A DNA stretch of 22,539 bases from a virus, in UHGV virus genome UHGV-0018397; one strand, 5' to 3'. Shown piece after piece: positions 2,572 through 19,818 of this stretch. Made by a program: the position numbers and the translations under genes. Below the pieces are notes generated by a model. The model ran no database searches and had not been told where the DNA came from. It worked only from the letters and a program-made list of their open reading frames with translations. The stretch's first letter is position 1. Each line of letters starts with the position of its first letter.

Positions 2572-3132
2572 TTAACGATTTTCTGGATGCACTCTCGCGT
2601 TGAGTGTATCGATAAAATCATGTTTAGTAATGCCCACATTGTGAACCCAATTCTTAGCTCTGGCAGGAAGGAAAACTTCAAGCATACGTTGGTAAATTGC
2701 AACAGAGGGCATGTGAGAGTTCCGGGTGAGATCGTCTTTGCCGCTAAACCGTCCCATTCGTTTCAATAAACTACCAATCAAAAGAAACTTTGATTCGTTG
2801 TTACCGTCAAATCCGGGGAATGTGAGTGATAATTTCTCATCGAAATTACGAATAGATTTGGCAACCTCTGCTTTGTCTTCCGCACTGAATCGTTCGTATG
2901 TGTATTGGAGAATGTCATACATATCATAGGTATCAACGAAAAGCTGGACTTCCCAGGGGGTCTCCTCTTCTTCATCTTGAAGGCCTGGGTATTCCCAGGA
3001 TAAAGCCCAGTAGTTATCCGTGCTCACTGCTTCGTCAATGAGGTCAGGATCAAATGAGTTTTCAATTTCTAATGCTCGGTGAATATCACTGAGCATCATG
3101 ATCTGTAGTTTTTCTTGCTGTGAGTATTTCAT
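2572..3132 (-). CDS. YfbU-family (UPF0304) protein, reverse-strand moron
   Basis: 186 aa; recalled similarity to E. coli YfbU blocks (EKLQIMMLSDIH, LTFPGFDGNNESKFL, YQRMLEV). AAGGA ribosome-binding site 8 nt before the ATG. Opposite strand to all flanking phage genes and visibly more AT-rich. Confidence 0.7.
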   Translation of the reverse strand: MKYSQQEKLQIMMLSDIHRALEIENSFDPDLIDEAVSTDNYWALSWEYPGLQDEEEETPWEVQLFVDTYDMYDILQYTYERFSAEDKAEVAKSIRNFDEKLSLTFPGFDGNNESKFLLIGSLLKRMGRFSGKDDLTRNSHMPSVAIYQRMLEVFLPARAKNWVHNVGITKHDFIDTLNARVHPENR

Positions 3133-10740: not shown

Positions 10741-11313
10741 ATGACGCCAGAAGAAACCTTAAGACTAACCACGGAATATCTGAAGAACCTTCAGGCGATG
10801 AAAACCCATTACGTCGCCGTAGGTTTGCCAGCGGGCAAGGTGGGAAATAAAACCCACGATGACGGAACATCGATAATTGAGATCGGGGCGGTTCACGAGT
10901 TCGGTGCTGAAATCGATCACCCTGGCGGGACGGGGTATATGGCAACCGGTGGAAAAGCTACGTTTACCCGCAAGACCTTCATGGGTCCGGTTAGCGGATT
11001 TACAGCGGCTCACAAGATAACGATTCCTGAACGATCCTTTCTTCGCGCTCCTTTCACCCTCAAAAAGTCGGAAATTAACCGGGCAATCGAAAAGGCCTGT
11101 GAAGCCGTAGGCTCCGGGCGTATGGATGCTGACACCGCATTAAATTTGATAGGCGCGACGGCGCGAAATATCAGCGTGAAGGCCTTTGAGATTGCCGGGT
11201 ATGGCACGTGGTCAGATATCACTGCTGCAACTAAAAAGGCTAAAGGATCGTCTGCGCCGTTAATTGATACAGGCGCCCTGCGTGGTGCCATAACGTGGGA
11301 GGTTCGTAAGTGA
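10741..11313 (+). CDS. Virion morphogenesis / neck protein (putative)
   Basis: C-terminal motif LIDTGALRGAITWEV resembles the phage virion-morphogenesis family as recalled; positioned between head and tail modules. Confidence 0.5.
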   Translation: MTPEETLRLTTEYLKNLQAMKTHYVAVGLPAGKVGNKTHDDGTSIIEIGAVHEFGAEIDHPGGTGYMATGGKATFTRKTFMGPVSGFTAAHKITIPERSFLRAPFTLKKSEINRAIEKACEAVGSGRMDADTALNLIGATARNISVKAFEIAGYGTWSDITAATKKAKGSSAPLIDTGALRGAITWEVRK

Positions 11314-11666
11314 GCGACTTATCAGACCTTGATATGAGCGACGCGTTAATCGGCTGGGAACAGCCTGTAAAACTCAAAACCCGCACTGAAACCACCATCG
11401 ATTTTGAACCGGTCGTGACTGTTAACAGCCAGGACATTCTGGCGGTGGTGCAAAGTGCGAACAAAGAGAATCTGACGCTGGATAGCCTGGACTGGTCGAA
11501 AGAATATCTGCTGATTCATGCACGGCTGAAAATTGAAACCGGTCAGTTTATTGAGAAGGGAGGCAAGGACTACAAAGTCGTGTCCCCGGCCGATTTTATG
11601 GATTACGGATTCTGCGCTGTCATCGCCGAGGAAACCCGGCTCCCGCTACTGGTGCCAACGCCATGA
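11310..11666 (+). CDS. Hypothetical structural protein (tail completion?)
   Basis: 118 aa, likely GTG start with GGGAGG ribosome-binding site; translationally coupled to both neighbours. Confidence 0.4.
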   Translation: MSDLSDLDMSDALIGWEQPVKLKTRTETTIDFEPVVTVNSQDILAVVQSANKENLTLDSLDWSKEYLLIHARLKIETGQFIEKGGKDYKVVSPADFMDYGFCAVIAEETRLPLLVPTP

Positions 11667-12151
11667 CACAACCCCATCTGAAAGCTGTCGCGCGTTTCGT
11701 ACGTGACCTTCTGGACTACGACGAACAGCTGATCAAGTTCGACCGTCGGAACGTGCAGGCGTCCGACTTTTCCACCAGTTATATCGTGGTAAACGGCTCA
11801 CTACCGCAATCAGTGCTGGCCCGTGGCCAGCGCTTTAATGGTGACGCGGAAGTGATGACTTATAGCGCCTCAGTGAGCCACGCGATTGTCCTGGAGTTTT
11901 ACGGGGATAAGGCTTACGTCAACGCTGAAAGCTTCATGATGCTGAGTGAAAGCCAGCACGCGAACGAACTGCGCCGCACGCATTCACTCACCATCATGGC
12001 CGTCTCAAACATCATCGATGTGGGGCAACTCCTGGGGCAGTCCCACGGTAATCGTGTTCACCTGAGTTTCAATGTTCAGTATGCCCCTGCGCGGGACGTG
12101 CAGACACTGCGCATCGATACGCCGCAGTTTCAATTTTTAGAGGACAAGTAA
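11663..12151 (+). CDS. Hypothetical structural protein (tail terminator / sheath stabiliser?)
   Basis: 162 aa immediately upstream of the sheath gene with overlapping start (ATGA). Confidence 0.4.
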   Translation: MTQPHLKAVARFVRDLLDYDEQLIKFDRRNVQASDFSTSYIVVNGSLPQSVLARGQRFNGDAEVMTYSASVSHAIVLEFYGDKAYVNAESFMMLSESQHANELRRTHSLTIMAVSNIIDVGQLLGQSHGNRVHLSFNVQYAPARDVQTLRIDTPQFQFLEDK

Positions 12152-13654
12152 ATGTCGGCATCAATTAATAACGTCATTAATGTGACGCTTCTCGAAGAGG
12201 GACGGGCGGCGGCGCGAGATAACATCAACGTTTGCGCAATTCTGACCAGCCAGACGGGGGTATTGAGCACTGCTGAACGCTGGCGTTCATACAAAAGCGC
12301 ATCTGCTGTCGAACAGGACTGGGGGGCTTCTTCAGTCACCGCAGCTTTTGCGAATGTGTTTTTCGGGACCAGTCCTAACCCGGTATCCGCGGGCGGCACG
12401 CTGATCGTCGGTTACTGGAACGCTGCCGGGGAAACGCTGCCTGCGACCAGCGGTGTACTGCGTGGCGGTGAGATTTCTCAGGCAGTCGTACTGCCAGCGT
12501 TACGCGAGAAGTCTGACTGGTCATTCAGTATTGAGATTGACGGCACTAAGCACGATGTGACTGAAATTAATGGCATGACGGCGACGACACTGGCAGATGT
12601 CATCGCCCAAATCCAGGCGAAAATTACGCCAGATGTTGCATCGGTTGTTTTTGATGGCAGCCGTATAGCGATTACCAACAAATCGACAGGGACTAACTCT
12701 GTTGTTGGTTATCCGACAGTGCTGGATGGTGGCTCTTTTATTGGCGATCTGCTGGCGGTTGCGGAGGGTTCCGGCGCTTCGCTGGTAAACGGTAGCGCAT
12801 CAACTGAGATTTCACCGGAAACACAACTGGAATCTCTCAGCAAACTCAAAGCGCAGGTCAACGTAAAAGGCGCGGCCTTCATCGACAAAATTCTCGATGC
12901 GCAGGTGCCGTTGATCGCTTCATGGGCTAAAGCGAACGCGGTAATCGTGTATGAGACATTTACCGGTTCGGCAGCTCTGGAAGTTGATCCGACTAACCCG
13001 GCATGGGCGGTAACACTCGCCAGCCAGAGTAATTTCCGCATGCTCTACAGCAAAACAGGCAACCGGAAATTTGGTGTTAGCTATATGGCGCGCACGCATA
13101 CCGTTAATTTCAACGGAGAACGCACTGCAATCACTTTGCACCTCAAAACGATGAACGTGCCGGCCGAAAGTTATGAGCAGACGGAGATCGACAAAGCGAA
13201 GCGTGTAGGTCTCGACATCTACACCACGATTAAAGACGTTCCCTGCGTGCTGTCGAGCGGTGCTAATGATTTTGTCGACAACGTCTATAACCTGATGGCC
13301 TACGTTGATGCAGTGCAGACGGATTCCTTCAACCTCCTTAAAACCACGCCGACTAAAGTCCCACAAACCTATTATGGCGTTGATCAGTTAGAGGACTGTG
13401 TAGAGAAAACCACGCATGGGTTTGTGAAGGCTGGGGTGTTCAATCCGGGTACCTGGACGCTGCCTGACTTCTTCGGGGATCGGGATATGTTTCTGCGAAA
13501 TATCGAGCAAAACGGGTATTACGTGCTGGCCGGTGACCTGAAAGACCAGTCAACCGCAGACAGGCAGGAACGCAAATCCCCGGTTGTTCAGGTAGCAGTG
13601 AAGAATGCTGGTGCTGTTCACAGTGCCGATATCATCATCAATTTCAATAAATAA
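12152..13654 (+). CDS. Tail sheath protein (contractile tail)
   Basis: 500 aa, first and largest gene of the tail block, followed by a tube-sized gene, chaperone and tape measure; GAGGA ribosome-binding site. Confidence 0.65.
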   Translation: MSASINNVINVTLLEEGRAAARDNINVCAILTSQTGVLSTAERWRSYKSASAVEQDWGASSVTAAFANVFFGTSPNPVSAGGTLIVGYWNAAGETLPATSGVLRGGEISQAVVLPALREKSDWSFSIEIDGTKHDVTEINGMTATTLADVIAQIQAKITPDVASVVFDGSRIAITNKSTGTNSVVGYPTVLDGGSFIGDLLAVAEGSGASLVNGSASTEISPETQLESLSKLKAQVNVKGAAFIDKILDAQVPLIASWAKANAVIVYETFTGSAALEVDPTNPAWAVTLASQSNFRMLYSKTGNRKFGVSYMARTHTVNFNGERTAITLHLKTMNVPAESYEQTEIDKAKRVGLDIYTTIKDVPCVLSSGANDFVDNVYNLMAYVDAVQTDSFNLLKTTPTKVPQTYYGVDQLEDCVEKTTHGFVKAGVFNPGTWTLPDFFGDRDMFLRNIEQNGYYVLAGDLKDQSTADRQERKSPVVQVAVKNAGAVHSADIIINFNK

Positions 13655-13664
13655 GGAGCGGTAA

Positions 13665-14096
13665 ATGTCTCAGATTGTTATCAGTGCAGATACCGCGACC
13701 ATCGTTCTGAATGGGCGAATCATCACGGATATCGCTGCGGGGGACTACGTCACGCTGACGCCATCCAATCCGCTTACAAGCCGCGCCAATAGTGCGAATA
13801 ACGGCGTCACAATCTCGGGGCGTGTTGATGCCGGGGTGCATGTGATGGTGATACGTGTCCAGAAATTTTCTAACGATGATATCTGGCTTAACCAGCAGCG
13901 TACCGCCGCGATCCCCGTTGTCTTTAACGGCTCAGTTAAAGAGTCGTTCGTGCGCGACGGCGCGGCACTGAAGGAAACCTACGATCTTCAGGCCGGTTCT
14001 ATCACCACACAACCGACGCAAACCAAAAACAACCAGGACGTTAACGCACTGATGGAATACACCATTGAGTACCGCAATGTCGTGCGTAATGTATAA
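13665..14096 (+). CDS. Tail tube protein
   Basis: 143 aa directly after the sheath gene; AAGGAG ribosome-binding site. Confidence 0.6.
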   Translation: MSQIVISADTATIVLNGRIITDIAAGDYVTLTPSNPLTSRANSANNGVTISGRVDAGVHVMVIRVQKFSNDDIWLNQQRTAAIPVVFNGSVKESFVRDGAALKETYDLQAGSITTQPTQTKNNQDVNALMEYTIEYRNVVRNV

Positions 14097-14104
14097 GGTC
14101 AGAT

Positions 14105-14518
14105 ATGTCTAAAGAACAGCAGAAAAAAGCACTCGAGATGATCAAGGCGGTCTACGATGACGGTTTTGCTGAAATCAACGGCAACCGCTACGACTTTGCT
14201 GCGATGACACACAAAAAACGCCGCAAGGTTTTTGCCTTCTTCACAGGCATTGCCTCTGAGTTATCGCGGCAGTCTCTTGAGTTTCTGGACTCAGAGCGAT
14301 TTGAGGAAATTGAACGCCTGATGTTCGATTACGTTCTGTTTGACGGTGTGCAACTGTCTAAGCAGCCGGAACACTTCGAATCCTACCCTGGTGATTACGT
14401 CATGCTAATCACAACAGCGCTTCAGGTTATCAGCCTGCCTTTTATGGGCGGGAGCAATATGAACTCACGTTCAGAAGCTCCAGACGTTCAGAAATTTACG
14501 TTAAATCCTCGAACATAA
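14105..14518 (+). CDS. Tail assembly chaperone (G-like)
   Basis: 137 aa acidic protein between tube and tape measure, the conserved position of the tail assembly chaperone. Confidence 0.6.
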   Translation: MSKEQQKKALEMIKAVYDDGFAEINGNRYDFAAMTHKKRRKVFAFFTGIASELSRQSLEFLDSERFEEIERLMFDYVLFDGVQLSKQPEHFESYPGDYVMLITTALQVISLPFMGGSNMNSRSEAPDVQKFTLNPRT

Positions 14519-14685
14519 GCGACGACATGAGCATGTATCTGGCGCTATCAAAGGCCGGATACGGCCCCTATCACGAACTTGTTAAATTAGACACACCAGA
14601 GCTGTTTGACATGCTTGAGTTCGAGAATATCAGCGCAGACATTCAACACTACGAGATGGAGAAGGCGCGGAATGGCGATAGTTAA
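14395..14685 (+). CDS. -1 frame extension of the tail chaperone (GT-like frameshift product, C-terminal part)
   Basis: The -1 frame is open from 14395 to TAA 14683-14685, overlapping the chaperone 3' end and ending 14 nt inside the tape measure start; no ribosome-binding site before its only ATG (14527). Confidence 0.45.
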   Translation, partial: LRHANHNSASGYQPAFYGREQYELTFRSSRRSEIYVKSSNISDDMSMYLALSKAGYGPYHELVKLDTPELFDMLEFENISADIQHYEMEKARNGDS

Positions 14686-16468
14686 CGAGCTTATTACCAA
14701 ATTCGGTTTTATCGGTAATCTGGCGCCGCAGGAAACCTTCAATGCAAATCTGAAAGCATCTATTGGTTTGCTTGCCGGGCTTGGAGCCGCTATCGCCGGT
14801 TCGGCTGCGGGGGTTGCTGGCTGGGTGACGTCTGTCAGTCAGTCTATTGATCCGCTGGTCCAGTTCTCCCGGGAAACGGGGGTGGCGATCGAGACCGTTC
14901 AGTCACTGGGTTACGCGGCGTCTGTAAATGGCTCAAGTGTTGATGCGTTGCAGGCTTCGCTAGGTGAGATGACAAAAAGAGTGGGGGAGTTCGTTTCCAC
15001 CGGTGAGGGGGAGGCGAAAGACGTTGCGGAAAGGCTGGGCCTTCAGTTCAAGGATATGAACGGGCAGGTAAAAAACTCCGATGTGATATTTCGTGAACTG
15101 GCCGACAAACTGCACGGCATGAGCCAGGCAGAGAAGTTTTCTGTTCTGGATAAGATGGGTATCGACCGTTCCATGGTGCAGTTGCTATCCATGACGGGCG
15201 AAGAAATATCTTCGTTGCAGAACAAGGCCGAGGCGCTTGGTGTTGTCACGCAAGACCAGGCCGATCAGTTTGCAGCCTACAACGATTCTCTGACAACGCT
15301 GGGGAAAGGCTTTGATGGTATCAAATTTCAGGTTGCCGTCGGATTTGTGCCGGTACTGAAAGACCTGGTGGATGGGTTTACGGACATTCTCATTGCTAAT
15401 AAGGATCTCATCAAAAACGGGCTGGCCCATCTTGGGGAAATTATCTTCTCCGTTATGGGTATGATCCGTCGCTTCCTGCCGATTATTGGTCTTATTACCA
15501 CCGGATTTGTAGCCTGGAAAATTGCTGCTATAGGACTTAGAGCGGTGCTGGCAACCATATTCTCTCCTGTCGTACTGATCACTGCCGCCATTATCGCTGT
15601 CGTTCTTGTTATCGATGATTTGCTGACGGCTATGGAAGGTGGCCAAAGCGTTATTGCTGATTTCTTCAAAGATAACTGGGGAATAGATATTGTTCCCGCA
15701 CTGAAAGAGGCGAAAGCGTCGCTCATGGCTTTCATAAACTACGCTATTGGCGTGTTTAAACCGCTTGCTGATGCGATTGCCTCCATGTTCAGGATGGTGT
15801 GGCATCTCATCACAGGTGCGTTTACGGGTGATTTTCAGGGTGCGATGAAGGATGCGCAGAATATCTTTGATTCTCTTATAGCGTTTATCACTGGTGCATT
15901 TGGTGTCGTTGGTGATGCGATTAAATACGTGTTTGGCGATGCCGGCGCGTTTGTCGTTGATGTATTCACTACTGCCATCGAAAACACGAAGCTGATGTTC
16001 TCAGCACTATGGAAGTTAGTCGCTGGCGATTTTGAAGGTGCATGGGGGGATGTGGTAAAAATCTTCGATAACGGCGTCGAACTGATGAAAAAACCATTCA
16101 CGGCTTTTATTGACTGGGCGAAAAACATCTTTGCTGGGCTGGGGGAATACATCAGCAATATTATCAGCAACGCTGCTTCAAATGCCTGGAATGCGACAAA
16201 GTCATTCTTCGGGGTCGGTGAGGATGAACAGCAGCAGGGAGTAACCGGCGGCGGTAACGGCGGCATGAGTCCTGGTGGTATTCCTTACGGCATGAATGCT
16301 GCGGTGGGACTCGGTGGTGGTGGCGTGACAAGCAATTCAAGCGTCAGCCAGCAGAACACGATTCACATCAACACATCCGATCCGGTTGTCGCCGGGAATA
16401 CTGCGGCAGATAGCCTGCAACAAAACATGAAGGATGCCAACCGGTTGAGTGGCAGAGGAGGTCGGTAA
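14672..16468 (+). CDS. Tail tape measure protein
   Basis: About 599 aa from ATG 14672 (GGAGAAGG ribosome-binding site); long internal hydrophobic segment (FLPIIGLITTGFVAWKIAAIGLRAVLATIFSPVVLITAAIIAVVLVI) and Gly-rich C-terminus. Confidence 0.8.
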   Translation: MAIVNELITKFGFIGNLAPQETFNANLKASIGLLAGLGAAIAGSAAGVAGWVTSVSQSIDPLVQFSRETGVAIETVQSLGYAASVNGSSVDALQASLGEMTKRVGEFVSTGEGEAKDVAERLGLQFKDMNGQVKNSDVIFRELADKLHGMSQAEKFSVLDKMGIDRSMVQLLSMTGEEISSLQNKAEALGVVTQDQADQFAAYNDSLTTLGKGFDGIKFQVAVGFVPVLKDLVDGFTDILIANKDLIKNGLAHLGEIIFSVMGMIRRFLPIIGLITTGFVAWKIAAIGLRAVLATIFSPVVLITAAIIAVVLVIDDLLTAMEGGQSVIADFFKDNWGIDIVPALKEAKASLMAFINYAIGVFKPLADAIASMFRMVWHLITGAFTGDFQGAMKDAQNIFDSLIAFITGAFGVVGDAIKYVFGDAGAFVVDVFTTAIENTKLMFSALWKLVAGDFEGAWGDVVKIFDNGVELMKKPFTAFIDWAKNIFAGLGEYISNIISNAASNAWNATKSFFGVGEDEQQQGVTGGGNGGMSPGGIPYGMNAAVGLGGGGVTSNSSVSQQNTIHINTSDPVVAGNTAADSLQQNMKDANRLSGRGGR

Positions 16469-17274
16469 TGGGGATTCTAGACGGCCTCATGCAGGCGCAA
16501 TCTTCTGGCAAAGATACTGTTAAAAAGGTAGGGATCGGCGGGTTCTCAATGTTTGCCCGAGTGAGCGATGCTACTGAATACCCGTCTCAGGTTCCTGTAG
16601 ACGTGCTGGAGGATGGCAGTAACGCGTCAGACGACATTATCAATGGCCCGCTGACGATAAAAATCAGCGGTGTTGTTGCCGATATTTTTGTCGATGCGAA
16701 ACCAAACTCTTCTTTTAGCCTGATGCCAGATTATTCGAAGTATGGTGAGGTGCTGGAGTACATCCCCGCAAAGACGCAGCAGCAGTTGCAAAAAATGAAT
16801 GAGATTGCCGACCGCGCAGAGCAGGCCATCTTAAAGGCAAAACGCCTGGCTGATAAAGGAGCCGACCTGTTTGGGCTGGTGGGCAACCCGTCTACTGGTG
16901 GCGCTAAAGGTATACGCGAGCAATTTCTCGACTTCATTGAGGGGGTGTACTACGGCAAGCAGCTTATTTCCGTGGAGGTGGATTATCGCACCCATGAAAA
17001 TATGGCGTTAAGCGGCCTGACCATCAGTACCGACAATCAAACGATGGAAACTAAGTTTGAAGCCAGTTTTACAAAAATCACCTTCACGCAACTGACTACC
17101 GCACCGATTGAGCAGCACTTCAAATCCCCCTCGGCAGCTGCTAAATCAAAAACGGCGGGCGTTGCTAATAAGGGGGCGCAGACGCCCGCTGATAATTCTA
17201 AAAAAAGTAACGGGACCAGCCAGTCAAAATCAGTCATGACCTCGTTAAAAGGGGCGGCGAAATCTTTATTCTAA
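16468..17274 (+). CDS. Tail / baseplate-associated protein (function unresolved)
   Basis: 268 aa immediately after the tape measure (TAATG overlap); Lys/Ser/Ala-rich low-complexity C-terminus. Confidence 0.45.
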   Translation: MGILDGLMQAQSSGKDTVKKVGIGGFSMFARVSDATEYPSQVPVDVLEDGSNASDDIINGPLTIKISGVVADIFVDAKPNSSFSLMPDYSKYGEVLEYIPAKTQQQLQKMNEIADRAEQAILKAKRLADKGADLFGLVGNPSTGGAKGIREQFLDFIEGVYYGKQLISVEVDYRTHENMALSGLTISTDNQTMETKFEASFTKITFTQLTTAPIEQHFKSPSAAAKSKTAGVANKGAQTPADNSKKSNGTSQSKSVMTSLKGAAKSLF

Positions 17275-17286
17275 TGAGAGCAACGT

Positions 17287-17622
17287 ATGGATCCGATAAC
17301 CAACATCACTGACGAACCTATCCAGCGGCATGTTCTGATTTTTGACCGTGGTGAGGCTGTGGTCACTATTCGTTATCTGCCTACGGTTGAAATGTGGAAA
17401 ATGCGCGTGGAGTACAACGGTGATTACATCGACGGCGTGAAGCTGTCCCTCGGGACGCTACATTTTCGGCACAAGAACTGGCCTTTCGACGTTGTGTTAC
17501 TTTGCGCTGACAATTCCGGCATTGACCCATATCGGGCTGACGACTTCGCCAGTGGTCGCATCGAAATGTATCTGGTCACGCCGGAAGAGATGATTGATAT
17601 TCGCGGGGGAGACGTGCCGTGA
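17287..17622 (+). CDS. Hypothetical tail protein
   Basis: 111 aa, translationally coupled to the downstream gene (GTGATGG). Confidence 0.4.
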   Translation: MDPITNITDEPIQRHVLIFDRGEAVVTIRYLPTVEMWKMRVEYNGDYIDGVKLSLGTLHFRHKNWPFDVVLLCADNSGIDPYRADDFASGRIEMYLVTPEEMIDIRGGDVP

Positions 17623-18566
17623 TGGATACTTTTTACCGTGATTATCGGCTGACGGTGGGGATCGGCAATCAAGCAGTGATTATCGAGCCACCGATCACCG
17701 TGTCATTCAAGGCGCTGGAAACTGTGGACAAGAAGTCACTCGGCAAGCTGAGTGTGTCCATCAACGGGCTAAAGCCTTCCACGCGTCTGCAATTGCTCAA
17801 GTCCGAAGATGAAGAGAAGTATATCCCCGTTCGACTCGAGGTTGGTTACGACGGCAAGCTGCGCCAGGTATTTCAGGGTTCGGTTAAAAGCGGAGCAGTA
17901 AAGCGTGAGGGGGCGATCCACATCGTCAGCCTGGAATGTGAAGACGGTGGCCACGACTATATCAACGCTTTCACATCGCGCACGGTACGCGGGAAAGATC
18001 AGGTCGTCGATTCTGTCTTGCAGGATATGCCAAACACGAAAAAAGGCTCTGTGACGAAGCAACAAGCACTCATCAGGCCGAAGGTTCTGGTAGGTAGCTC
18101 CAGTAAAATTCTTACCGATACCCTTGCGTCCGACGAGTCATTTTTCATCAAAGATGAGCGCGTCCACATCCTCAAGGCTAATGAGGTTACATCGGGTAAC
18201 ATTCCAGTCGTGAATGCGCGTAGCGGTCTGCTAAATACGCCTCAGGCAACGAAGATTAGCGCACAGGATGACGGGGGGAAGAAAGCCAAGATGCCAACCA
18301 ATGAGCCTGATACGGATCCGGCAGGCAAAAAAGATACTGACTCGAGTACCTTAGCCAAATCCTCGAAAGGGCAGATCGTATTCGATACGAAACTGAATCC
18401 TATGCTGGTGATCGGTGGGCTTTGCGCTGTTGAAAGCGTGACGAACCCCGCGTTAAACGGGGTTTATAAGATATACCAGATTGAAACCAGCGGGCAGAAC
18501 AACGGGGCAGCCTGGTATCAGAAGGTGGTATGCCAGCCTGCCGGAAATTACTCAGTTGTTAACTGA
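17619..18566 (+). CDS. Putative baseplate hub / tail protein
   Basis: 315 aa in the baseplate region; its 3' end overlaps the 3' end of the minus-strand gene by 15 nt. Confidence 0.45.
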   Translation: MMDTFYRDYRLTVGIGNQAVIIEPPITVSFKALETVDKKSLGKLSVSINGLKPSTRLQLLKSEDEEKYIPVRLEVGYDGKLRQVFQGSVKSGAVKREGAIHIVSLECEDGGHDYINAFTSRTVRGKDQVVDSVLQDMPNTKKGSVTKQQALIRPKVLVGSSSKILTDTLASDESFFIKDERVHILKANEVTSGNIPVVNARSGLLNTPQATKISAQDDGGKKAKMPTNEPDTDPAGKKDTDSSTLAKSSKGQIVFDTKLNPMLVIGGLCAVESVTNPALNGVYKIYQIETSGQNNGAAWYQKVVCQPAGNYSVVN

Positions 18567-19085
18567 AGATTTTACTTCTTGCGTTACGCTGGAATTGGTT
18601 TTTTCTGGTGGGTGACGATCTGAAAGCCAGCCAAGAGCAAAAATAATGACTGTGAGAATAAAAATTTTCTCGCCTATTGAAAACTTCACCTTACCACCTG
18701 CATTTTTAAATGCCGTTTTCTCCTCGGTTGATAGTTTTCTAAATTGCTTATGGGTTAATACCATGACCAATGGGCGAGGTGGTTGAATATCTTCCTGACC
18801 ATCCTCTAACAACGTTGAGTCCGAAAAGAAACCAAGCCGCTCAGGTGCTTGTTCCTCTACATTCTCAGCGTGTTTACCGGTGGAGTTCTTTTGACCCGCG
18901 AGCAAGTTTCCACTCGTGTAAGACAAACCGGTACCGGGAATGCCTGCGGTTGCCTTTACCCCTTTTTTACCAACGTTCAGGGTAGCACCAGCCTTACCAA
19001 TTGATGCGCTAGTAATGCCTGTTTTACCTATGTTTATATGAATGCCTGGTGCAATTTTGATGCGCTGTCTGAATTTGAATCCCAT
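18552..19085 (-). CDS. DUF4236-like membrane protein, reverse-strand moron
   Basis: 177 aa; N-terminus MGFKFRQRIKIAPGIHINIGKTGITSASIGKAGATLNVGKKGVKATAGIPGTGLSYTSG matches the Gly-rich DUF4236 pattern as recalled; C-terminal transmembrane helix (IFILTVIIFALGWL); GGAGAG ribosome-binding site; AT-rich. Confidence 0.7.
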   Translation of the reverse strand: MGFKFRQRIKIAPGIHINIGKTGITSASIGKAGATLNVGKKGVKATAGIPGTGLSYTSGNLLAGQKNSTGKHAENVEEQAPERLGFFSDSTLLEDGQEDIQPPRPLVMVLTHKQFRKLSTEEKTAFKNAGGKVKFSIGEKIFILTVIIFALGWLSDRHPPEKTNSSVTQEVKSSVNN

Positions 19086-19200
19086 GAGTGACTCTCCTTA
19101 GTATTAAACGCTGGCGCAGGTTCGCTCTACGGCGATTAGTATGAGTATTTATCTAGCCATCCATTGAACCCACTCTGGCGGTTTTTTATGGGCTTAATTT
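19086..19200. promoter_or_regulatory. Divergent intergenic region (promoter for the DUF4236-like gene and possible restart of the baseplate operon)
   Basis: 115-bp AT-rich non-coding spacer between divergent start codons; a TTGAAC -35-like hexamer on the plus strand at 19164-19169; no convincing full promoter identified by eye. Confidence 0.3.
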
Positions 19201-19818
19201 ATGATCGAAGAACTTCACGACACTATCGGCCTGGGTGTTGAATTTGCTCTGGCCGATGTTCACACCATTGTTGTCGCAAAAATAACGTCTGTAAATGACA
19301 AAACAATCAGTTGCGTCCCCGTTATCAATCGGGTTGTGAAAGGGAGCAGCAAGCAACTCCCAGAGTTCATTGAAGTCCCCCCGGTAATTTTGCAAGGCGG
19401 TGATAGTTATATCGCCGAACCAATTGCGGCTGGTGACTATTGCCTCGTCCTTATCTCTGAGCGTTGTTATGACGCTTGGTATGCGGGTAGCGACTTTGTT
19501 TCACCACTTGAAATGCGTATGCACGATTATTCAGATGGCTTCGCTCTGTGTGGGGTTAACCCACAGGCTACCGCGATCAATATCCCTAAGAAGAACAGGA
19601 TGATGAAGGGGGATTCTGACCACGAGGGTGATTTAAACCTCACAGGAAATATTACCCAGAAAGATGGTAAGACGACTCTGGAAGAATGCGATGTTCTGAA
19701 TGTACTTCAATATTCCCAGGTAAAGACAGGCGGTAAGTCTGGGGTGTCTGGTTCATTTCGAAGCGATGACGGGAAAACAATCACAGTTACCAACGGTATT
19801 GTCACGGAGATCTCATGA
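19201..19818 (+). CDS. Putative baseplate spike / assembly protein (gpV-like)
   Basis: 205 aa, first gene after the moron; position in the baseplate block. Confidence 0.4.
   Translation: MIEELHDTIGLGVEFALADVHTIVVAKITSVNDKTISCVPVINRVVKGSSKQLPEFIEVPPVILQGGDSYIAEPIAAGDYCLVLISERCYDAWYAGSDFVSPLEMRMHDYSDGFALCGVNPQATAINIPKKNRMMKGDSDHEGDLNLTGNITQKDGKTTLEECDVLNVLQYSQVKTGGKSGVSGSFRSDDGKTITVTNGIVTEIS

Follow-up and report, generated by a model that had tools for sequence, protein, structure and literature searches.

A reverse-strand DUF4236 gene at the baseplate hub-spike junction of an Escherichia coli prophage, a candidate superinfection-exclusion moron

Phage T4 excludes superinfecting phages in two layers, with Imm in the membrane and Sp in the periplasm. 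SieA of phage P22, which is present in only some related phages, has three transmembrane (TM) helices (PMC10883804). The HK97 gp15 gene was the first moron to be described, an insert of deviant G+C content (GC) in the tail operon that encodes a small single-pass inner-membrane exclusion protein (PMC3594210), and Ltp of the Streptococcus phage TP-J34 is a lipoprotein on the outer membrane face that binds the tape measure protein (PMC3952083). Here we compare with these systems a gene in the virus genome UHGV-0018397, a stretch of 22,539 nucleotides (nt) referred to as the window. Its list of open reading frames (ORFs) contains a reverse-strand ORF with an ATG start, 18552-19085, that encodes a 177-amino-acid (aa) DUF4236 protein between the baseplate hub and central spike genes. 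Judging from comparison with related loci, this gene appears to be a horizontally acquired moron in a hub-spike cargo hotspot, and its product may well exclude superinfecting phages at the inner membrane; we hold this reading with about even confidence and are less sure of the mechanism.

The DUF4236 gene and its predicted membrane protein

Of 5426 complete Escherichia coli genomes, 5 contain a chromosomal prophage that matches the window region at 99.4-99.9% identity and whose gene RefSeq names 'DUF4236 domain-containing protein'; a near-identity DNA search of sequenced phages gave no match to the region. In the prophage, a contractile tail module of the E217/PB1 type is accompanied by a Q antiterminator and a lysis cassette. 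A first-pass annotation of the window had reported a reverse-strand 177-aa ORF with a strong ribosome-binding site between two baseplate genes, and the coordinates, the AAGGAG sequence and the profile matches of the hub and spike genes agree with it (Table 1). The 115-bp spacer it described is also present (19086-19200), but it is only mildly AT-rich (44.3% GC vs 51.1% for the whole window) and lies 5' of the ORF on the ORF's own strand rather than after it. The annotation had missed a convergent 15-bp overlap at 18552-18566 between the 3' ends of the hub and DUF4236 genes. This overlap of the stop regions is centred on the palindrome GTTAAC and recurs in the E. coli and Salmonella loci, not in the Yersinia locus.

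The ORF is a genuine gene under purifying selection. Full-length homologues that are 53-92% identical were found in E. coli, Kluyvera, Salmonella, Pantoea and Yersinia; synonymous divergence (dS) is saturated between loci, and the ratio of nonsynonymous divergence (dN) to dS is 0.04-0.2 for the gene. Measured against the homologues, dN ranges from 0.08 to 0.17 over the DUF4236 domain and from 0.10 to 0.44 over the juxtamembrane motif and helix, and in the linker and C-terminal tail it is close to dS, at approximately the neutral rate. The gene is intact in all 5 E. coli genomes and in 30 viral contigs. The forward strand opposite carries ORFs of only 51 and 71 aa, so that no longer gene is being shadowed, and together with the strong purifying selection this rules out an antisense artefact of a longer forward-strand gene. 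Base composition is foreign relative to the neighbours: the gene has a GC of 43.4% and a GC at third codon positions (GC3) of 38.8%, compared with 50-52% and 55-60% for the flanking tail genes, and AT skew changes sign across it.

Over residues 1-62 the protein is a Gly-rich repeat built of short amphipathic strands (GIHINIGKTGITSAS, GATLNVGKKGVKATA and GIPGTGLSYTS), modelled by AlphaFold2 as six beta-strands with a predicted local distance difference test score (pLDDT) of about 85, and the net charge over aa 1-66 is +10. The DUF4236-like N-terminus that had been noticed in the sequence is a full-profile Pfam match (PF14020, residues 3-57 to profile positions 1-55 of 55, 69 bits vs a cut-off of 27, E-value 4.9e-19); the 177-aa protein also matches phrog_18347 (E 5.6e-79), and a profile search of PDB sequences with it found no match. 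The acidic linker that follows is deleted in homologues of 147-155 aa. Next comes the juxtamembrane motif, which AlphaFold2 models as a small alpha/beta element and in which the columns L110, T111, K113, L118, S119, F126, G130, G131, K132 and S136 are invariant. The C-terminal TM helix claimed earlier is likewise supported by prediction, since the hydropathy peak of 1.87 coincides with AlphaFold2 helix 137-157; this Kyte-Doolittle maximum over 19 residues is centred near residue 142-146 and marks the only hydrophobic segment. Four homologues (three from Salmonella and one from Pantoea) have a further domain of some 75 aa with two Cys added to the tail beyond the helix, and some DUF4236 homologues carry a C-terminal SH3_3 domain after the helix.

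Because the helix is flanked by a net charge of +5 before and 0 after it, an N-in/C-out topology is expected, and an external C-terminus fits the placement of the SH3_3 or two-Cys domain after the helix in relatives. The N-terminus is not hydrophobic, and there is no signal peptide or lipobox. We thus predict a tail-anchored inner-membrane protein, N-in/C-out: by prediction it lacks a signal peptide, has one TM helix near the C-terminus and ends in a short extracytoplasmic tail.

To place the protein in its family, 1.84 billion representatives were searched with a profile, giving 9011 clusters (50% identity) at E-values up to 1e-3. Only four of them reach 1e-30, and the full-length subfamily is therefore small. 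The window protein matches the full PF14020 profile well above threshold at its extreme N-terminus, where the domain is found in nearly all family members; a linker, the juxtamembrane motif and a helix ending in GWLSDRH set the enterobacterial subfamily apart. A TM segment follows the domain in 75 of 89 homologues and in 121 of 141 new representatives. The 90 representatives with exactly one such segment have a median of 5 residues after it, and the median net charge over the first 60 residues among representatives is +10, matching the +10 of the window protein. The typical DUF4236 protein, as far as these predictions go, is small and tail-anchored with a basic cytoplasmic beta-domain.

Gene content of the hub-spike junction

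A hub-profile scan of IMG/VR returned 80 contigs, 76 of them with both hub and spike; some are near-identical, and the numbers given here count contigs rather than independent events. The junction holds the DUF4236 gene alone in 18 of the 76 contigs, a reverse-strand gene for a signal-peptide protein of 120-128 aa alone in 22, and the two in tandem in 12. Forward-strand cargo encoding other envelope proteins occupies it in 13 (seven with a bPH_2 protein with two TM segments, five with a DUF7424 lipoprotein and one with a secreted tRNA_anti-like protein of OB fold), and no insert is present in the remaining 11, which come from more distant phages with hubs 43-74% identical. In phages fEV-1 and VBM1 the junction is likewise empty and the hub and spike genes overlap. 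Relatives with hubs 82-100% identical have the DUF4236 gene, other cargo or both, and even contigs with hubs 93-97% identical to that of the window bear different cargo. Across the contigs compared, the hub-spike junction is thus a cargo hotspot in which the insert is exchanged between close relatives and the product is always envelope-targeted. The variable or empty junctions imply that the DUF4236 gene is dispensable for the virion. The first-pass annotation had proposed an accessory gene inserted backwards in the baseplate module, to be examined by comparing this junction among related phages; the insert is found present, replaced, paired or absent across the 76 contigs, which together with the foreign composition bears the proposal out.

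Every full-length DUF4236 homologue examined lies on the reverse strand at this junction, and in none of the loci examined was the full-length subfamily found anywhere but at the hub-spike prophage junction. The secreted 120-128-aa protein, the commonest alternative or companion cargo, has a signal peptide and two invariant Cys but no Pfam family; one member matches T4_Spackle below threshold (E 0.01, 16.8 bits vs a cut-off of 27), and a profile search of the PDB did not confirm the match. In Citrobacter murliniae, where this cargo also occurs, the hub gene is split into ORFs of 158 and 118 aa (L010 6004-6949), which suggests a frameshifted, decaying prophage.

The Salmonella (L003 and L004) and Yersinia (L005 and L006) relatives have the gene order hub, DUF4236 (-), an mnt-like Arc-family gene (-), arc (+), ant (+) and spike, and the products share 42% (Mnt), 40% (Arc) and 38% (Ant) identity with their P22 counterparts. 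The order in P22 is gene 16, sieA (-), orf59a, mnt (-), arc, ant and gene 9. By this synteny, the DUF4236 gene of the Salmonella and Yersinia relatives occupies the P22 sieA position, inside a complete P22-type immI region within the baseplate module of a contractile-tailed prophage. In these relatives both the divergent ant-type promoter and the post-ant terminator are detected, and the gap of 63-69 nt between mnt and the DUF4236 gene has no predicted terminator or promoter, which suggests that the two genes are co-transcribed in lysogens. In the Yersinia loci, moreover, the sheath gene is separated from the tail gene next to it by an oppositely oriented gene for a 266-aa NUMOD3 protein (L005/L006 13295-14095 (+)) that is probably a homing endonuclease.

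In the window, the 115-bp spacer looks like the scar of an mnt-arc-ant deletion. Its two ends correspond to the mnt-DUF4236 intergenic region and to the terminator after the antirepressor gene (Table 1); a global alignment against the whole immI region gave scattered chance blocks, of which only the two terminal ones are trusted. The terminator hairpin is intact in L003, whereas the window sequence folds no better than shuffled sequence (z 0.15). A related contig, L015, retains the last bases of mnt as non-coding sequence, and an Rfam scan of the junction gave no match. The simplest history suggested by these alignments is that an immI-like cassette was captured, mnt-arc-ant was then deleted and the DUF4236 gene was kept.

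We infer that the gene is expressed in the lysogen. Within the spike gene, at its 5' end, lies a candidate antisense promoter whose hexamers are retained whatever the junction contains, forward-strand cargo included, so that their conservation is inseparable from coding constraint on the spike. In contigs with the secreted protein only, about 21 nt separate the cargo start from the spike start, and any dedicated promoter for reverse-strand cargo there must therefore lie inside the spike gene. For the downstream baseplate and fibre genes, the first-pass annotation had allowed for either antisense read-through or a restart of transcription. Read-through is the likelier option because the scan gave no restart promoter above chance, a Q antiterminator is encoded in the prophage, the terminator ahead of the spike gene is degenerate and P22 likewise carries its sieA-mnt-arc-ant block inside the late gene array.

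Table 1. Coordinates of the features discussed, in the window unless a related locus (L number) is named
Feature	Position	Strand	Evidence or remark
Coding sequence of the 177-aa DUF4236 protein	18552..19085	-	ORF; RefSeq WP_000505900.1 in strain NADC1036
DUF4236 domain, aa 3-57, Gly-rich basic beta-hairpin repeat, predicted cytoplasmic	18915..19079	-	Pfam, AlphaFold2
Variable acidic linker, aa 63-107, predicted disordered	18765..18899	-	pLDDT <50 at residues 67-107; charge -6
Juxtamembrane motif LTxKQFRKLSxEEKxAFKxAGGKVKFS, aa 108-136	18678..18764	-	Alignment; enterobacterial subfamily only
Single TM helix, aa 137-157, predicted, ending in invariant GWL	18615..18677	-	Hydropathy, AlphaFold2; G152, W153 and L154 invariant
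Fast-evolving C-terminal tail, aa 158-177, predicted periplasmic, and stop	18552..18614	-	Last 15 bp overlap hub gene
Shine-Dalgarno sequence AAGGAG	19094..19099	-	8 nt 5' of ATG; kept in related loci
Baseplate hub gene, left flank	17619..18566	+	PF22759 E217_GP41, E 2.7e-9; phrog_196 'baseplate hub', E 3.3e-51
Central spike gene, right flank	19201..19818	+	PF18352, E 1.3e-17; RefSeq 'membrane-puncturing spike protein'
58-nt leader, homologous to mnt-DUF4236 intergenic region	19086..19143	-	48/58 nt (83%) identical to L003 7943-8000
Degenerate remnant of post-antirepressor terminator ahead of spike	19168..19200	+	L005 6418-6453, 22/26 and 7/7 nt
Candidate antisense promoter TTTACA-17 nt-AACAAT inside 5' end of spike gene	19267..19295	-	Consensus 9/12
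P22-type immI region, complete, Salmonella and Yersinia prophages	L003 6361-7931; L005 6481-7937
Secreted 120-128-aa cargo	L009 6955-7341 (-); L010 6950-7312 (-); L015 6304-6672 (+)		34 IMG/VR contigs
Forward-strand cargo examples	L032 5520-5960; L053 5517-6215; L058 5514-6251	+	All envelope-targeted

Elsewhere in the prophage, a second reverse-strand gene stands in the rightward late array at 2572-3132 (-) of the window, with the lysis cassette on one side and the small terminase gene on the other; it encodes a 186-aa protein that RefSeq names 'YfbU family protein' and looks like another moron. Downstream of the window, oppositely oriented tail-fibre and fibre-assembly genes beside a 'recombinase family protein' gene (L001 25228-27313) look like an invertible host-range segment. 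Three E. coli genomes retain only the spike-to-fibre part of the tail module (L002, strain 1506, 11082-16571), where it directly follows IS1A and adjoins an integrase/RecT remnant, the state of a truncated prophage. Genomes that match only from the spike onward had been considered as natural 'empty' junctions and were rejected as such, being IS1-truncated prophage remnants.

Candidate functions of the DUF4236 protein

The gene probably arrived within a P22-type immI cassette (mnt, arc, ant), in the sieA position downstream of mnt, and alone would have been kept when mnt-arc-ant was later lost in the window lineage. The protein, made in the lysogen, would present its basic DUF4236 domain, acidic linker and Lys-rich motif on the cytoplasmic side and about 20 residues in the periplasm, and would most likely exclude superinfecting phages at the inner membrane, hindering from its cytoplasmic face either the conduit that delivers the genome or the DNA as it enters. 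Any exclusion activity is expected at that face or within the membrane, since the conserved parts are predicted to be cytoplasmic and the periplasmic tail is free to evolve. During lytic growth, the Q-antiterminated late transcript most likely reads antisense through the gene to the spike and fibre genes.

Exclusion gains indirect support from the synteny with the P22 sieA/immI region and from the pattern of DUF4236 genes in other slots known for exclusion genes (those of ltp and gp15, and the hub/spike site). The gene lies between repressor and integrase genes in Roseburia phage Shimadzu and R. gnavus phage RG-TP1, and in an integrative element it directly follows an HTH_3 repressor gene beside the integrase; this repressor-integrase slot is that of the exclusion gene ltp (PMC3952083). 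In phiCD38-2 it is directly upstream of the tape measure gene, with a similar placement in an Acinetobacter prophage, and the chaperone/tape-measure slot is that of the HK97 gp15 exclusion moron (PMC3594210). Klebsiella phage RCIP0034, with as little as 23% (hub) and 30% (spike) identity to the window proteins, has a reverse-strand DUF4236 gene just upstream of the spike gene, and in Pasteurella phage Pmp2 the gene lies in a cargo region after the hub and is followed by a TM2-domain gene. The link between DUF4236 and TM2 was seen twice (L107 3422-4180; L109 3001-3588), as a fusion in Shimadzu and as adjacent genes in Pmp2. One further homologue adjoins two AbiTii genes at a prophage end, and another is in an integron-like cassette array with toxin-antitoxin and Abi_alpha genes.

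Several observations weigh against exclusion. The genomic position is circumstantial evidence, and DUF4236 is not restricted to the lysogeny modules of prophages, as integron-like cassette arrays and large Klebsiella phages (about 140 kb) also contain it. The literature searched gives no function for DUF4236, no defence family of PADLOC-DB 2.0 matches the 177-aa protein at E-values up to 1, NCBIfam has no match to it, and structural-neighbour (fold) searches returned nothing informative. Its periplasmic part is tiny and freely evolving, unlike that of exclusion proteins active in the periplasm. SieA lacks a DUF4236 domain and has three TM helices, compared with one helix in the window protein; homology to it was rejected (hhalign probability 0.4%), and the FxRYPxEAxxFNK motif of SieA types A-C is absent from the window protein; homology to HK97 gp15/YebO was rejected as well (hhalign probability 0.9%, no similarity). 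On the transcription side, the number of promoter sites near the gene in the window is not above chance and a scan of 18200-19400 gave no terminator-like site, results that do not sustain the description of the gene as 'independently transcribed'; by comparison with the immI relatives, the mnt-arc-ant deletion would also have removed the mnt promoter from the window lineage.

The evidence for a lysogen-expressed accessory gene would serve equally for a post-entry abortive-infection or membrane effector, a tail-anchored sensor of infection that damages or depolarises the membrane. P22 SieB and lambda RexB are models for such action, the homologues beside AbiTii genes and with toxin-antitoxin and Abi_alpha genes point the same way, and an amphipathic, strongly basic beta-sheet could bind an anionic membrane surface. 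We nevertheless consider this effector unlikely: no PADLOC model matched, the junction holds no partner sensor gene, a single short TM helix offers little from which to form a pore, and the delivery-apparatus neighbours and the sieA, ltp and gp15 slots suit entry blockers better. A role in lysogenic conversion or host physiology unrelated to exclusion, such as tethering nucleic acid or ribosomes to the membrane, would accord with the size of the family (9011 clusters), some members of which have non-phage chromosomal contexts, with the uniformly very basic domain (median +10 over the first 60 residues) and with the fact that other junction cargo consists merely of 'envelope proteins' with no proven anti-phage role. 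However, in the loci examined the full-length subfamily keeps to this one prophage junction, and linkage of DUF4236 to genes for immunity and repressors recurs; we rate conversion as improbable too.

Involvement in the phage's own lytic cycle or regulation (lysis timing, the Ant/Mnt circuit, or hub-spike assembly or infection) appears very unlikely. DUF4236 genes do stand beside hub or spike in three divergent lineages (the window clade, RCIP0034 and Pmp2), those of Pmp2 and phiCD38-2 are on the tail-gene strand, and homologues are found in the Klebsiella phages of about 140 kb. Yet the DUF4236 gene is missing from many close relatives in which hub and spike are intact, the window gene is on the strand opposite the late operon, the prophage has its own lysis cassette, and survival of the gene after the loss of mnt-arc-ant makes it independent of that circuit. 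A non-functional ORF, arisen by chance or decaying antisense to structural sequence, would fit the scans, which detected neither a promoter nor a terminator, and the loss of the upstream mnt promoter, but it is effectively refuted by the selection analysis, with dN far below dS across homologues 55-92% identical and the ORF intact in the E. coli genomes and viral contigs, and by the intergenic placement, the strong ribosome-binding site and the 69-bit Pfam score.

Taken together with its family, the exclusion reading can be extended to a joint reading that we regard as possible but doubtful. DUF4236 would be a large unrecognised family (at least 9000 clusters) of tail-anchored exclusion proteins acting at the cytoplasmic face, where the basic beta-sheet would capture or block the tip of the incoming conduit or the DNA. 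The genes would stand beside spike, tape measure or immunity genes as exclusion and escape co-evolve, the junction would be a dedicated exclusion-cargo hotspot, and the pairing with the secreted protein would amount to a two-layer block like that of T4 Imm and Sp. The locus provides a concrete, testable hypothesis for a widespread family of no assigned function and next to no literature. If exclusion is confirmed, a new and very common exclusion family would be added, exclusion by a cytoplasm-facing, tail-anchored protein would be possible, and the hub-spike junction would be a place to mine envelope-acting anti-phage genes, with a bearing on the resistance that prophages confer in phage therapy; otherwise the gene would be an ordinary uncharacterised moron.

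Comparison with described exclusion systems

P22 SieA is the closest counterpart by position. In the Salmonella and Yersinia relatives the DUF4236 gene, like sieA, is oriented in reverse and separates mnt from the last virion gene upstream, with immI ahead of the tail spike; the window itself has only the immI scar. The proteins are of similar size (177 aa for DUF4236 and 164 for SieA) and both are predicted to be in the inner membrane without a signal peptide. The phages differ, since the prophage here has a contractile tail with an E217-type baseplate and is no P22-like podovirus. With HK97 gp15 the protein shares a small size, a single membrane pass and an origin in a tail-operon insert of deviant GC beside a genome-delivery gene, and the DUF4236 gene of phiCD38-2 is in the same chaperone/tape-measure slot. 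In contrast, gp15 is a 62-aa, YebO-related protein with an N-terminal TM helix, and its gene is on the tail-gene strand with its own annotated terminator.

Like TP-J34 Ltp, the DUF4236 proteins of Shimadzu and RG-TP1 are membrane-associated and encoded in the repressor-integrase slot. In contrast to the lipoprotein Ltp, the window protein lacks both a signal peptide and a lipobox, and its conserved part is predicted to face the cytoplasm. The 12 contigs that encode the inner-membrane DUF4236 protein in tandem with a secreted periplasmic protein next to the spike gene resemble T4 Imm/Sp (PMC11436027) in arrangement; the sole sequence link to that pair is the below-threshold T4_Spackle match that the PDB profile search did not confirm. 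As in described morons, the gene is present or absent at the same site among close relatives and its base composition deviates from that of its neighbours. We take the DUF4236 gene to be an uncharacterised prophage moron that probably serves in exclusion.

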